A stretch of DNA of 50,945 nucleotides from Thermoplasmata archaeon (GCA_034667685.1 JAXDQU010000017.1:1-50945); one strand, 5' to 3'; positions 1 to 18,355 are shown, counted from the first letter of the stretch. Translations and numbers: made by a program. The notes: generated from the sequence alone by a model not told the origin.

Positions 1-54
1 TTCGTGCTCTTCGTGGCTTCGGGCTCTTCGTGTGATGTCGAGCGAGGCAGAAGA

Positions 55-82
55 TCAGGCGGCCTTCGCCTTGAACTCGGTG
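55..82 (-). repeat. Displaced synonymous duplicate of rps27ae 3' end (TEFKAKAA*)
   Basis: Minus strand C ACC GAG TTC AAG GCG AAG GCC GCC TGA vs in-gene C ACG GAA TTC AAG GCG AAG GCC GCG TAA (155-182); offset 100 nt. Confidence 0.9.
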
Positions 83-154
83 CTGGACGGAGCCTCCGCC
101 GCGCGCTGCGCTCGCGGCACCTCCGTCCGCACGGAATCCAAGGCTCGGGGCCGC

Positions 155-355
155 TTACGCGGCCTTCGCCTTGAATTCCGTGTATCCGCAGTTGCCGCAC
201 GAGACGCGGTCCTTGTGCTCCGCGAGGAACACGCCGGGGCCGCACTTCGGGCACGCCTTGCGCTTGCGCGTGACCGTCGTGCCCTTGACCTCGTAGAGCG
301 CGCGCTTGCCGGCCGGTCCCTTCTTGGGCTTCGCGGCTTCCTTGCCCTTCGCCAT
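155..355 (-). CDS. rps27ae: 30S ribosomal protein S27ae
   Basis: [26 protein letters not shown] zinc ribbon; last gene of the conserved rpoE' operon. Confidence 0.97.
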
Positions 356-3543: not shown

Positions 3544-3978
3544 CTAGTATGGTCGGATGATAATGCTCAGGGTTACAACGAACCAGACGAACCAAAGGAG
3601 GCCTGTGGTCGCAATAATGGCATACAACAGGTGTCGCGCCTTGATCCCGGCCGGTCGCTCGGTGAACATCCGGTGCTCCTCGACGATCCCCCGTTCAAGG
3701 AGGCCGACCACGGCCGTGGCCCGCTGCAAGTACCAGTTGTTTCGATGAATGAAGTAATACCAAATTAACGAAACGATCGCACCAGTAAGCGCGACTAGCG
3801 CCGCCAGAGGATCGGTTGCGCGTACCCCCTTGGCGAAGAGGGCCCCAACCAAGAGCCCTTGGACCACGAAGTAGGCATTGACTAGTTGCCAACGGCGAGA
3901 GTCTTGATACTGGACATTCTTCACAGCCTCGGCATAGTCAATTGGCCTGAGGGGCGCTGGAAGTTGACCGGCGGCCAT
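3544..3978 (-). CDS. Small 3-TM membrane protein (possibly RipA-like)
   Basis: Three hydrophobic segments; D..RW..N.Y.V.Q pattern; lower-GC region. Confidence 0.7.
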   Translation of the reverse strand: MAAGQLPAPLRPIDYAEAVKNVQYQDSRRWQLVNAYFVVQGLLVGALFAKGVRATDPLAALVALTGAIVSLIWYYFIHRNNWYLQRATAVVGLLERGIVEEHRMFTERPAGIKARHLLYAIIATTGLLWFVWFVVTLSIIIRPY

Positions 3979-13698: not shown

Positions 13699-15843
13699 TC
13701 AGGCGCCGATCAGCGAGTGCGCGACGACCAAGGCAGCGAAGATCACCGAGATCGTCGTCATCGCCTTGATGAGCGGGTTGATCGCGGGGCCGGCGGTGTC
13801 CTTGAAGGGGTCGCCGACGGTGTCGCCCACGACCGCGGCCTTGTGGGCCGGGCTGCCCTTGCCGCCGTGGACGCCGCTCTCGAAGCTCTTCTTGGCGTTG
13901 TCCCACGCGCCGCCGGCGTTGGCCATGAGGAGCGCCAGCGCGAGGCCGCCCACGATGGTGCCGATGAGCAGGCCGCCCAGCGCCAGCGGGCCGAGGATGA
14001 AGCCCACGAGGAGCGGCGCGGCGACGGCGAGGAGGCCGGGCACGACCATCTCGCGCAGCGCGGCCTTCGTGACGATGGCGACGCAGCGCGCGTAGTCGGG
14101 CTTGCGCTTGCCGGCCATGATCTGGCCGTCCTTGAACTGCTCGCGCACCTCGAGCACGACGGCGTTCGCGGCGCGGCCGACGGCGGCCATCGCGTAGCTC
14201 GCGAAGAGGAACACGACCGCGGCGCCCAGGAGCAGGCCGCTGAGCACGTACGGGTTGCTGATGAGGAAGGTGAGCTGGCCGTTGACGTCGAGCGCGCTGG
14301 CCCAGGACGTGCCGGGCGCGGCGGCGCTGGCGTGGTCCACGAAGTCGGCGAAGAGCACGAGCGCCGCGAGCGCCGCGCTGCCGATCGCATAGCCCTTCGT
14401 TGTCGCCTTGGTGGTGTTACCCACCGCGTCGAGCGCGTCGGTGACCTTGCGGACCTCGGGGGGCAGCTCGCTCATCTCGGCGACGCCGCCCGCGTTGTCC
14501 GTGATCGGGCCGTAGGTGTCGAGCGCGACGACCATGCCCGCGACGCTGAGCATGCCCACGCCGGCCATGGCGACGCCGTAGAGGCCGAGCATGTTGGCGG
14601 TGTGCGCGTCGACGCCCGCCATCGCATTGTGGCCCAGGATGAAGCTCGCCACGAGCGCGGCCACGACGAAGACGACGGGGAGGAAGACGCTCTGGAGGCC
14701 CACCGCGATGCCCTGGATGATGTTGGTGGCGGGGCCGGTGACCGAGGCGTCCACGATGCCCTTGACGGGCTTGTAGCCCTGGCTCGTGAAGTAGTCGGTG
14801 ACGCCGAAGAGGAGCAGCGTCAGGACGAGGCCGATGACGGCGGCCCAGAGGAAGTTGATCGGGATCGCGGTGAACGCCCAGGCGTGGAGCGCCCAGAAGC
14901 CGATCGCTGAGACGACGACCGTCGCGATGAGGCCCGCGTAGAGCGCGTTCATGATGTTGCCGCTCGCCGGGAGGCGCACGAAGAACATGCCCACGACGGA
15001 GGCGACGATGGCGAAGGCGCCCATCGCGACCGGGAAGAGGATGCCCGTCTCGCCGAACTTGCCGAAGACGGCGGCGGACGCGGCGAGCGCCATCGCGGCG
15101 ACCAGCGTGACCACGTACGTCTCGAAGAGGTCGGCGCCCATGCCGGCGCAGTCGCCCACGTTGTCGCCCACGTTGTCGGCGATGACCGCGGGGTTGCGCG
15201 GGTCGTCCTCGGGGATGCCGGCCTCCACTTTGCCCACGAGGTCGGCGCCCACGTCGGCGGCCTTGGTGTAGATGCCGCCCGCGATGCGCGCGAAGAGCGT
15301 GATGAGGCTCGCGCCGAACGCGAAGCCGATGAGGTTGAGCGGGACCTTCTGGGCGTCGCCCAGCTGCCCCTTGAAGATCATGTAGAGCGAGGTGAGGCCG
15401 ATGATGCCCAGTCCCACGACCGCGAAGCCGTTGACGGCGCCGGCGCGGAAGGAGAGCGTCAGCGCGCGCTTCATCCCCTGGCGGGCGCCCTCGGCGACGC
15501 GCGCGTTGGACGAGACGCTGATCCACATGCCGATGTAGCCGGCCAGCGCGGAGAGGAGCGCGCCCAGCACGAAGCCGCCCGCGGTGTAGTACCAGAACGA
15601 GTCGGCCGTGGCGTAGCCCACGACGGCGAAGACGATCGTGAGGAGGACGGCGAAGATCGCGACCACGCTGTACTCCAGCTTGAGGAAGGCGAACGCGCCC
15701 TCGCGGACGGCGAGCTGGATCTCCTTCATGCGGTCGTTGCCCGCGCTCTGGCGCAGGATCCACGCGGCGATGAAGCCCGAGACGACGAGCGCGAAGACGC
15801 CCGCGACGGGAGCGAGGTAGAGGAGGGTGGTCGTGTCAACCAA
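13699..15843 (-). CDS. hppA: Membrane H+-translocating pyrophosphatase, K+-independent type
   Basis: [36 protein letters not shown] (Lys) marks the K+-independent type. Confidence 0.96.
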
Positions 15844-16889: not shown

Positions 16890-18242
16890 ATGGCCGTGAA
16901 CCTCCGCGACCGGAAGTACGCCCTCGACATCGACCCGAAGGCCCTCGACGGGCAGGACGTGGTCGTGGCGGGCTGGATCCAGGAGACGCGCGACATGGGC
17001 GGGATCGCGTTCGTGATCCTGCGCGACCGCAGCGGCACGCTCCAGGTCGTGCTGCCCAAGAAGAAGCTCGATGCGGCGCTCGTGGAGAGCCTCACGAAGC
17101 CCAACCGCGAGAGCGTCGTCGCGATCCTGGGCACCGTGAAGGCGTCCGAGAAGGCGCGCAACGGCTACGAGGTGCTCCCCAAGGAGGTGCGCATGCTCAA
17201 CGAGTCCGCCGCGCCCCTGCCCATGGGCATCGTCGACAAGGTGGACGTCGACTTCGAGACGCGCCTCGACAACCGCTTCCTCGACCTGCGCAAGCCTGAG
17301 GTCCAGGCGATCTTCCGCGTGCGCAGCGCGCTCGTGAAGGCCGGGATTGACAGCTTCACGAGGCAGGGCTTCTTCCAGGTCCACACGCCGCGCATCATCG
17401 GCGCCTCGTCCGAAGGCGGCACCGACCTCTTCCCGGTCAAGTACTTCGAGAAGGACGCGTTCCTCGCGCAGTCGCCCCAACTCTACAAGCAGATGCTGAT
17501 GGCGACGGGCCTGGACCGCCAGTTCGAGGTCGCGACCTACTTCCGCGCCGAGAAGCACAACTCGTACCGGCACCTCAACGAGGTCACGGCCTTCGACGTC
17601 GAGATGGCGTTCGTCGAGAGCGAGGAGGACGTCATGAAGATCCTCGAGACCGCGGTGCGCGACATGTGGCAGGGCGTGCACGACCACTGCCACGCCGAGC
17701 TGAAGCTCCTCAACAAGGAGGTCAAGGTGCCGCAGCTTCCCTTCGCGCGCCTGACGTACGACGAGGCGCTCAAGCTCGTCAACGGCGCGGGCCGCTGGAC
17801 CAACGAGAAGGGCGAGCAGGCCCAGATCCCCTGGGGGGACGACCTCAACGCCGCGGCCGAGAAGATACTCGGCGAGGTCATGGCGGAGCGCGGCCACGCG
17901 TTCTACTTCATCACGAAATACCCGGAGACGGTCCGGCCGTTCTACACCTACGTGGACGAGGACGGCACGACGACGCGCAGCTTCGACCTGGAGCACGCGG
18001 GCCTCGAAGTGACCTCGGGTGCCCAGCGCCAGCACGACCCGCAGAAGCTCGTGCAGCGCATCGAGGCCAAGGGGCTCAACCCGGCCGACTTCCGAGACTA
18101 CCTCAAGCCGTTCCAATACGGGATGCCCCCGCACGGCGGCTTCGGCCTCGGCATCGACCGCCTGACGATGGAAGTGCTCAACCTCCCGAACGTGCGCGAG
18201 GCCGTTCTCTTCCCGCGCGACAGAACGAGGCTCGCGCCGTGA
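16890..18242 (+). CDS. aspS: Aspartate--tRNA ligase (archaeal type)
   Basis: OB fold AGWIQETRDMGG, LAQSPQLYKQ, FRAEK, GMPPHGGFGLGIDR, FPRD. Confidence 0.97.
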   Translation: MAVNLRDRKYALDIDPKALDGQDVVVAGWIQETRDMGGIAFVILRDRSGTLQVVLPKKKLDAALVESLTKPNRESVVAILGTVKASEKARNGYEVLPKEVRMLNESAAPLPMGIVDKVDVDFETRLDNRFLDLRKPEVQAIFRVRSALVKAGIDSFTRQGFFQVHTPRIIGASSEGGTDLFPVKYFEKDAFLAQSPQLYKQMLMATGLDRQFEVATYFRAEKHNSYRHLNEVTAFDVEMAFVESEEDVMKILETAVRDMWQGVHDHCHAELKLLNKEVKVPQLPFARLTYDEALKLVNGAGRWTNEKGEQAQIPWGDDLNAAAEKILGEVMAERGHAFYFITKYPETVRPFYTYVDEDGTTTRSFDLEHAGLEVTSGAQRQHDPQKLVQRIEAKGLNPADFRDYLKPFQYGMPPHGGFGLGIDRLTMEVLNLPNVREAVLFPRDRTRLAP

Positions 18243-18323
18243 GCGCGAGCCGAAGTGTGTCGCGCGGGATGGCCGCCGCCAGGGCGCGCAGCGCCCGGTC
18301 GGCCGCAGCCGAGGCGGCGAGCA

Positions 18324-18355
18324 TCCCCCGCGACCGCACGCGCCTGGCGCCGTGA
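18324..18355 (+). repeat. Displaced synonymous duplicate of aspS 3' end (PRDRTRLAP*)
   Basis: TC CCC CGC GAC CGC ACG CGC CTG GCG CCG TGA vs in-gene TC CCG CGC GAC AGA ACG AGG CTC GCG CCG TGA (18211-18242); offset 113 nt. Confidence 0.9.

Follow-up and report, generated by a model that had tools for sequence, protein, structure and literature searches.

Hairpin inserts between two synonymous copies of a gene end recur at conserved genes of a Thermoplasmata archaeon

The window analysed here, a 50,945-nt stretch of DNA from a Thermoplasmata archaeon, is the start of contig C17 of a 3.48 Mb source genome (G000; 124 contigs, 71% GC, 99% complete). Near its left edge lies rps27ae, the gene for ribosomal protein eS31/S27ae, whose product carries a zinc-ribbon motif (CPKCG...) that is kept in relatives. 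The end of this gene is written twice, and the two copies enclose a pair of hairpins. All features lie on the minus strand and are listed in the order in which the gene is read:

155..355, minus strand: rps27ae coding sequence, 66 aa, from the ORF list; stop codon TAA at 157..155
155..182, minus strand: T1, the live gene end, CACGGAATTCAAGGCGAAGGCCGCGTAA; 28 nt comprising the last eight codons, the stop and one base, and forming the left arm of a stop-in-loop hairpin
149..154, minus strand: GCGGCC, the 3′ arm of a 6-bp mini-hairpin that pairs with GGCCGC inside T1; the loop, GTAA, contains the stop
130..144, minus strand: T′, GCCTTGGATTCCGTG, which repeats the first 15 nt of T1 in inverted orientation, apart from one T/G wobble, and forms the right arm of the long hairpin
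85..128, minus strand: hairpin H; outer stem of 8 bp (GGACGGAG/CTCCGTCC), then an inner stem, and GCGCAGC at the tip
55..82, minus strand: T2, the silent second gene end, CACCGAGTTCAAGGCGAAGGCCGCCTGA, with its own stop TGA at 57..55

As the initial annotation had described, T1 (182..155) and T2 (82..55) start exactly 100 nt apart, both translate as TEFKAKAA followed by a stop, and differ at four places, three of them synonymous third-position changes (ACG/ACC, GAA/GAG, GCG/GCC) and the fourth in the stop codon (TAA/TGA). The 72-nt insert between the copies consists of two hairpins and contains no ORF. Within it, CCGA separates GCGGCC from T′, T′ terminates at the duplication start, and AG lies between H and T2, the initial bases of which pair with the end of T′ across H. 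T′ is able to pair with either T1 or T2 (inverted repeats I1 and I2) and has the T1 state at both informative sites (2/2). The stop-in-loop hairpin and the second hairpin that follows it, both noted from the start, appear in folds of positions 190..50 (141 nt) computed as DNA (−49.9 kcal/mol, z −5.8) or as RNA (−83.4 kcal/mol, z −5.8), with 0/200 shuffles as good in each case. An Rfam search of the window returned one tRNA only and no match at the rps27ae feature. Neither the 72-nt insert nor H has a second copy in G000, where the insert matches itself alone, and the insert is without the conserved caps found at other loci.

We compared the locus across 40 relatives searched with rps27ae and across additional alleles from a pattern scan of public genomes and metagenomes; several of these between-genome comparisons rest on two to six genomes, which are kin and not independent samples. 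A genome of the same genus (G003; 86% identity over the match) holds the orthologous rps27ae block with its T2, and two more public records are identical to the G003 structure. Between G000 and G003 the outer stem of H is the same and the inner stem is different yet still pairing; 43 of 43 predicted pairs are kept, six of them via changes on both sides, of which four lie in the H inner stem, and a compensatory pair at columns 60/110 connects the last bases of T′ with the first codon of T2. Because a sister species has the orthologous structure with compensatory stem changes, the rps27ae block is inherited and not an artefact of assembly. The ~100-nt block shows a presence/absence polymorphism: G000 and G003 carry it, whereas the site is empty in another genome of the genus (G002) and in two metagenome contigs (L103 and L104), and in this respect the relatives supplied the empty alleles that the idea of an inserted ~100-bp block had called for.

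The empty alleles also bear on T1 and on the mini-hairpin. In G002 the rps27ae end is identical to T1 of G000, including GCGGCC after the stop, and leads directly into a T-rich tract. GCGGCC likewise follows the stop in L100 and L103, and since all three of these alleles are without the insert, the mini-hairpin is native. The live end of L103 reads ACC GAG ... GCG TAA GCGGCC and that of L104 reads ACG GAA ... GCC TAA. Three T2 states out of four are therefore also present in live ends: L103 and other genera have ACC and GAG, and L104 has GCC. GCC TGA is seen at the rps27ae end of G001. Judged by these alleles, each codon difference between T1 and T2 is a synonymous variant segregating among live alleles. 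The initial proposal that the inserted element brought T1 with it as a recoded replacement end therefore had to be given up, as T1 with GCGGCC is an ordinary live allele of the empty G002 and L100.

The duplication of rps27ae belongs to a genome-wide class. Taking as predicted genes (n = 3342) all frames with a GC3 of at least 0.80, a crude frame test, we re-found the last 30 nt directly within 250 nt downstream at a score of at least 14 for 22/3342 genes versus 0 with a random other gene's tail, and at a score of at least 12 for 51 genes versus 12, so that the scan for re-encoded gene ends suggested earlier did find further cases. A protein-level screen with inspection of the matches gave 23 clean loci in G000, aspS among them, once false positives had been removed, namely the shared acidic tail of ribosomal P0/P1 (C54), tandem-repeat proteins (C101, C110, C124, C62, C105 and C89) and low-complexity Arg/Ala-rich frames. 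The hosts are mostly core genes, chiefly of information processing, and encode ribosomal proteins S27ae, S10 and S7, RNA polymerase subunit N (RpoN), TFS, PCNA, RadA, a beta-CASP aCPSF1-like nuclease, an LSm protein, two class II aminoacyl-tRNA synthetases, SufBD, S-adenosylhomocysteine hydrolase, a biotin carrier, enoyl-CoA hydratase, a PurP-like enzyme, an FKBP, a Pup-ligase-like protein and a MutS-like protein, and scars are also present at tRNA 3′ ends and at one gene 5′ end.

Two architectures make up the class. In type A (rps27ae, aspS and ~13 others) the order is T1, a stop-holding loop, T′, H and T2, and in type B T′ is missing and the long direct copies enclose an element of 80 nt with two hairpins. 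Scar orientation always follows the sense strand of the host gene. The repeats range across loci from 15 to ~170 nt (28 nt at rps27ae, 32 nt at aspS, 161 nt at locus C72) and are mostly non-identical, with identity or near-identity at the aCPSF1-like gene (38/38), C75 (31/31) and C122 (22/23). Inserts are 40-120 nt of hairpins whose stems vary among loci and whose loops stay CGCAG or CGAAG. The T1–T2 spacing is a multiple of three at just 8/22 loci, which is the chance level, and we therefore reject read-through or in-frame use of T2.

We next asked what kind of sequence T2 is. Over 254 aligned codons at 22 loci, T1 and T2 differ by 66 synonymous and 6 non-synonymous codon differences, with base differences at codon positions 1/2/3 of 14/7/69, and at the 23rd locus (C72) 7/7 differences over 161 nt fall at third positions. 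A conserved tail was partly a screening criterion, and the count was accordingly redone minus the last seven codons, giving differences of 2/2/25 by codon position (14 loci, 489 nt; p = 6e-9 against one third). The changes were then polarised at nine loci with up to five relatives, by a majority rule that is rough at fast sites with few relatives: by codon positions 1/2/3, the T2-specific changes number 4/3/22, with 2 more in stops, and the T1-specific changes 4/1/15, and 11 sites are ambiguous. Because the T2-specific changes are mostly third-position, whereas a relic would spread them evenly, T2 does not behave as a decaying duplicate. The alternative that the initial annotation had set against its own reading, an isolated tandem duplication with non-synonymous decay, is contradicted by at least 22 loci, across which synonymous differences prevail. 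Serine and arginine codons change family between the copies (AGC or AGT versus TCG, AGA or AGG versus CGC), and the two copies at C72 end in KFGAS and KFQE before their stops, the first like G001 (RFGAPASR) and the second like G003 (KFAE). Together, these patterns show that T1 and T2 are two alleles, each of which evolved as a working gene end, and that T2 is a snapshot of another functional allele. A scheme in which T2 is native and T1 foreign was tried by likeness to the closest relative, G003, and dropped for want of signal (25 versus 26 sites).

The history of the two copies is not one of simple divergence. In the rps27ae tail, codon 5 is either GCG or GCC, and in both G000 and G003 it has the same state in T1 as in T2; the two copies of G003 are also nearly identical. 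This near-identity, the shared codon-5 state and the 38/38 match at the aCPSF1-like gene of G000 show clearly that later copy-to-copy conversion acts as well, blurring the history.

The inverted copy T′ has its own relation to the two alleles. At the 30 sites that T′ covers and at which T1 and T2 differ, T′ agrees with T1 in 26 cases and with T2 in 3 and departs from both in one, so that T′ is cognate to T1 and templated on it. The T′–T1 alignment starts 0-3 nt from the first duplicated base at 16 of the 19 loci with a recognisable T′, the exceptions being C13, C78 and the type B locus C111. The palindrome made from the gene's own end, with its stem beginning where the duplication begins, was first noted at rps27ae and is a general rule. 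T′ is rarely perfect, and its bubble usually falls near the middle, also where T1 = T2.

Beyond T′, the inserts contain element-like repeats. A loop of TGA+GCGAAGCGAA lies right after T1 and before the inverted copy in seven type A blocks, one of them at a tRNA 3′ end, where a perfect 20-nt inverted copy of that end follows. A 26-nt hairpin, ATAGGCCGG...CCGGCCGTG, closes ~10 or more blocks. G000 contains the 80-nt type B element (element B) in 11 copies that measure 45 nt or more, and the element is multi-copy in G003 too; clear direct target repeats flank 7/11 of the G000 copies, weaker ones 2/11 and none 2/11, and of the seven clear cases two lie at tRNA 3′ ends and one at a gene start, on the other strand. 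Profile searches of the 99%-complete G000 genome gave 0 matches to the Y1 (RAYT/IS200) transposase family (PF01797), for which control genomes were positive, and 0 matches to reverse transcriptase (PF00078).

A second type A block lies within the window at aspS, where the same architecture had been pointed out together with that at rps27ae and is now joined by ~20 further genes:

18211..18242, plus strand: aspS T1, the live end, with rare Arg codons AGA and AGG where relatives have CGN at both
18243..18323, plus strand: aspS insert; stop-in-loop arm and T′ at 18243..18269, branched H with CGCAG-type loops at 18270..18323
18324..18355, plus strand: aspS T2, the silent copy, contiguous with ancestral downstream DNA; T1–T2 spacing 113

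The aspS insert of G000 has almost no second copy in the genome and is missing from 5/5 relatives, and the DNA 3′ of T2 aligns to the flank after the stop of the empty G003 allele. T2 at aspS is contiguous with the old flank, so that T2 with its downstream flank represents the older arrangement at this gene. Another relative, G004, has its own aspS event with other boundaries, comprising a T1 of ~105 nt, a T′ of 11 nt, a CGCAG-loop hairpin and a partial T2 of 61 nt with one third-position difference. The aCPSF1-like gene is filled in G000 with T1 = T2 (38/38) and empty in G003 and G002. In G004 and G001 it has three consecutive copies in the order T1-T′1-H1-T2-T′2-H2-T3, each T′ matching the T to its left, and in G007, from another genus, two copies in which 8/11 codons differ, all synonymously. 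One H of the G001 array has further hairpins nested in its loop, and a class II synthetase gene in G001 carries three copies of a ~170-nt end. With other boundaries at aspS and stacked copies at the aCPSF1-like gene, the same genes have been struck by independent events.

Several known systems share part of this anatomy. The prophage e14 (and phage 21) in E. coli icd and the integrative elements in tRNA 3′ ends are integrase-driven, with one fixed target each and an identical core. The comparison with e14 made in the initial annotation captures the outcome, a live end beside the insert and a silent displaced end downstream that differs mostly at silent sites, and tRNA 3′ ends are also hit here; at aspS the displaced end is contiguous with the old flank, as expected of an e14-type event. 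The mechanism is another matter, because 72 nt is too small for an integrase, the copies are not an identical att core and many different genes are targeted: unlike e14, the inserts have tens of bases of cargo and no recombinase at rps27ae, with at least 22 targets. REP, REPIN and BIME sequences (PMC2817692, PMC3733652) resemble the scars as short GC-rich hairpins just 3′ of genes, and in G000 both the type A H and the element B families are multi-copy. In contrast to REP/REPIN sequences with RAYT, G000 has no Y1 gene by PF01797 and the rps27ae insert is single-copy, and the excerpts of these reports consulted do not mention a target duplication of tens of bases or an inverted target copy for REPs (PMC2817692, PMC3733652).

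Other candidates were rejected outright. A MITE does not fit, since the inverted arms copy the target and not the element and the duplication is 15 to ~170 nt and not fixed. A diversity-generating retroelement, group II or retron-type origin is contradicted by the 0 matches to PF00078, and the first of these also by differences that are of all base types and not confined to adenines. An archaeal bulge-helix-bulge intron, which calls for two 3-nt bulges on opposite strands around a 4-bp helix, was discarded by eye: the predicted fold shows no offset bulges, but a 6-bp inner helix and, at one level, an internal loop of 3 x 4.

Insertion with long target duplication was reportedly first described by Nobusato et al. 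in 2000. In bacteria it places a kilobase-scale cargo of restriction–modification genes between variable target repeats of 30 to >400 bp, with no transposase or integrase in the insert and some repeats overlapping a gene 3′ end, by a mechanism that this source gives as unknown (Furuta, Abe and Kobayashi 2010, PMC2853133). The archaeal scars share with the events described there the long direct target repeats, the absence of mobility genes and an empty allele in a relative, and the 28-nt rps27ae repeat is just under the 30-bp threshold used in that report (PMC2853133). They differ from what those pages describe in being 40-120 nt hairpins in an archaeon, with an inverted target copy inside and direct copies that are two functional alleles. 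A limited search of the open-access full-text literature yielded no description of this arrangement, which is not proof of absence. The insert and silent copy at rps27ae, with the same scar at about twenty other core genes, point to a small hairpin DNA that lodges at gene ends by an undescribed route.

The reading we tentatively favour, and regard as plausible though short of probable, is recombination repair with snap-back synthesis that joins two alleles, in effect a miniature insertion with long target duplication. We infer a break, snap-back synthesis, a joining step and a second template. A single-stranded 3′ DNA end would bear one gene-end allele, acquired with incoming DNA from a related lineage or copied from another copy of the chromosome during repair synthesis, and would finish in a hairpin-prone tail, which at rps27ae would be the native GGCCGC-GTAA-GCGGCC mini-hairpin. 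This tail would snap back and prime copying of the single-stranded T1 until duplex is met, generating T′ and fixing the boundary. The second hairpin, H, would cap the arm and turn the strand again, and the end would then be joined or primed at the first base of another allele's intact gene end, T2. Once inherited, the block would keep its stems complementary through selection or intrastrand templated correction, and it may be lost, move between related lineages by homologous recombination in the conserved gene end, or stack.

Part of this scheme has precedents in yeast, where snap-back templated inverted insertions at breaks and direct-inverted-direct triplications at hairpin-capable repeats are described in the excerpts consulted (PMC11724301, PMC10622511, PMC4689423). 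Like the yeast ODIRA and foldback products in those excerpts, the scars have a direct-inverted-direct order, hairpin-capable sequence at both turns and a neighbour-templated inverted copy. Unlike them, they are neither of kilobase scale nor fillers of 5-34 bp, and they join two different alleles. The outer-border repeats of ODIRA, as presented there, have no counterpart here, since T2 is not followed by a stop-loop arm and the coding sequence before T1 contains nothing like H.

Snap-back repair would account for the direct-inverted-direct order with its hairpin turns and for a T1-templated T′ that ends at the boundary, and the native mini-hairpin sits exactly where T′ begins at rps27ae. It would likewise account for a T2 allele on the old flank, recurrence at conserved genes and the lack of a recombinase in the insert. 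Against it, the conserved caps at different genes look more like a dedicated element than random repair filler, and neither the source of the single-copy rps27ae H nor the right edge of the duplication at the stop codon is explained. T1 and T2 are also equally near the closest relative, which gives the event no direction.

The conserved caps and the stacked arrays would be explained by the main alternative, which we consider possible but rather unlikely, a dedicated gene-less mobile cassette. Here T1-cap-T′-H, one repeat period in the form of a dumbbell or single-stranded DNA circle, would pair its own copy of the target with a gene end and enter it in a Campbell-like manner, displacing the resident end and spreading selfishly with a host or viral enzyme. 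Cap modules are conserved among cassettes at different genes, element B is multi-copy in both G000 and G003, T′ is cognate to T1 with T2 another allele, and the stacked T1-T2-T3 arrays resemble successive invasions; the hosts are mostly very conserved genes, as a spreader dependent on homology would require. A T-cap-T′-H circle and one crossover in T yield exactly the observed order, but that single crossover also predicts T′ = T2 to its left, which is seen at 3/30 sites. Moreover, the rps27ae insert is single-copy and without the conserved caps, the aspS insert has almost no second copy, profiles PF01797 and PF00078 give no candidate enzyme, and the acquisition of a new target copy lacks explanation. 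The stronger claim that these blocks are a new kind of gene-less selfish DNA is in our view doubtful. Such an element would be a hairpin-capped mini-cassette of ~60-190 nt whose cargo is only its own target copy (replacement end and inverted arm), homing to the same gene of other chromosomes or lineages without an endonuclease, stackable, leaving the protein unchanged and using tRNA ends and gene starts as well.

The loci with identical or nearly identical repeats bear on a further alternative, one we judge improbable, in which a small hairpin element inserts in the manner of a transposon with a long and variable target duplication. T1 and T2 would be equal at birth, one or both copies would later be overwritten piecemeal through homologous recombination with alleles of related lineages, and T′ would track T1 through hairpin-templated correction. 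Young-looking cases (38/38 at the aCPSF1-like gene, 31/31 at C75, 22/23 at C122) are what this scheme expects, as are the element B copies bounded by target repeats (7/11), of which two lie at tRNA 3′ ends and one at a gene 5′ end, and the concerted change of T1 and T2 at rps27ae tail codon 5 within G000 and within G003. However, symmetric overwriting predicts T′ = T2 about as often as T1, against a count of 26 versus 3, and the origin of T′ is left wholly unexplained; no transposase was found with PF01797, and repeats of 15 to ~170 nt match no known fixed stagger.

We assign a very low probability to a 3′-UTR structure selected by the host for mRNA stability, a terminator-like role or translation, which would have arisen in situ from a tandem duplication and kept T2 as an alternative helix for T′. 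The hairpins are very stable and have compensatory changes between species, T′ can pair with T1 or T2, and the scars invariably follow the sense strand of their host gene. Yet T′ pairs with the first few bases of T2 only and the entire T2 has coding-like conservation, close relatives are without the block at the same genes, tRNA 3′ ends and a gene 5′ end carry the same scars, no Rfam family matches, and the 8/22 spacing speaks against read-through use. An assembly artefact fusing two strains at a contig end, the refutation foreseen in the initial annotation, is scarcely credible: the block does sit just 55 nt inside the contig, whose first 47 nt form a dispersed repeat, but the independent G003 genome carries the structure in a 14% diverged form with compensatory changes, as do the two records identical to it, and ~20 loci of the same architecture are mid-contig.

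What the scars would mean depends on how they arose. If they record recombination of diverged alleles, the most conserved genes of uncultured archaea would carry their own markers of gene flow, and each silent copy would be a dated snapshot of a once-working allele. If they propagate themselves as cassettes, no smaller mobile DNA would be known to protect its host gene with a spare gene end, and this would explain how hairpin repeats colonise essential genes harmlessly. On either reading they affect annotation, through false small ORFs and wrong gene ends, and assembly, through contig breaks, and they offer a concrete system for how archaeal chromosomes make and keep palindromes.

Codon use was also compared between the two copies. 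Deliberate recoding of T1 with rare codons is rejected, as the rarer codon lies in T1 at 37 and in T2 at 29 differing codons, which is not significant. Three further differences are trends only: GC-ending codons are 46/66 in T1 versus 57/66 in T2, AGR arginine codons are 5/21 versus 1/21, and TGA stops are 16/22 versus 10/22, where the genome share of TGA is 61%.

We identified element B, an 80-nt two-hairpin element found in multiple copies in the source genome (G000) between direct copies of its target, at two tRNA 3′ ends and at one gene start, and located another tRNA 3′ end carrying the loop module that follows the live gene end in several blocks at different genes. The sites on contigs of G000 are:

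C68:31456-31536, element B at a tRNA 3′ end
C41:about 3894-3974, element B at a tRNA 3′ end
C122:8536-8616, element B at a gene start, gene on the opposite strand
C108, around 8007, minus strand, tRNA 3′ end with the loop module

At C68 and C41, the final 25 nt of the tRNA region occur on both sides of element B, and at one of these two sites GG replaces AA in the T-loop of the downstream copy. At C122, the element separates two gene-start copies, each comprising a ribosome-binding-like site and ATG plus seven codons, with a single, synonymous difference between the copies, and gene 5′ ends are therefore also targets. After the C108 tRNA 3′ end come TGA+GCGAAGCGAA and then a 20-nt stretch that repeats this end exactly in inverted orientation; the TGA-bearing loop module is thus present even without need for a stop codon.

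Comparison with relatives (G001–G004) revealed stacked and independent events at the same genes, which we set out together with the related duplications in G000:

G004 C130 (L059) and G001 C44 (L060), arrays of aCPSF1-like (beta-CASP) gene ends, downstream of the gene
G000 C84:8765-8901, duplication of the aCPSF1-like gene end
G004 C170 (L050), aspS event in a sister species, downstream of aspS
G001 C17:24918-26246 (L094), tandem class II aminoacyl-tRNA synthetase gene end, ortholog of G000 C13:12829-15645
G000 C72:about 14766-15190, copies of a MutS-like gene end

The aCPSF1-like gene end occurs as three consecutive copies in both G004 and G001, each with an inverted counterpart and a hairpin of its own downstream; G000 has two identical copies, and G003 and G002 have one. 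The aspS event in G004 is an independent one with different boundaries, and its second copy stops after 61 nt and is therefore an incomplete gene end. In L094, the synthetase gene end matches three times in tandem, with repeats of ~170 and ~120 nt. The MutS-like copies span 161 nt with seven third-position differences and differ in their final residues (KFGAS* vs KFQE*), each resembling a different relative.

Beside rps27ae, the contig opens with a 47-nt stretch (window 1-47) whose minus strand contains units such as CACGAAGAGC/CCGAAGC. This stretch has several matches elsewhere in the genome (83-100% identity), some close to contig ends:

C81:11-53
C81:33874-33979
C101:2601-2646
C55:1796-1836
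C20:2278-2353
C10:19611-19658

Judged by these matches, window 1-47 is a short dispersed repeat, which probably caused the assembly break at this contig start.

An unrelated membrane-protein ORF in a metagenome contig (L101, 1228-1251) ends in the same 24 nt (…DEFKAKAA*) as rps27ae, which may be a chance match, by rough estimate for a collection of that size, or could be a captured gene tail. A further contig (L099), from a public record titled Proteobacteria MAG, is identical to the archaeal rps27ae locus of G003 over the compared stretch, and its bacterial name probably reflects a mistake in binning or labelling.
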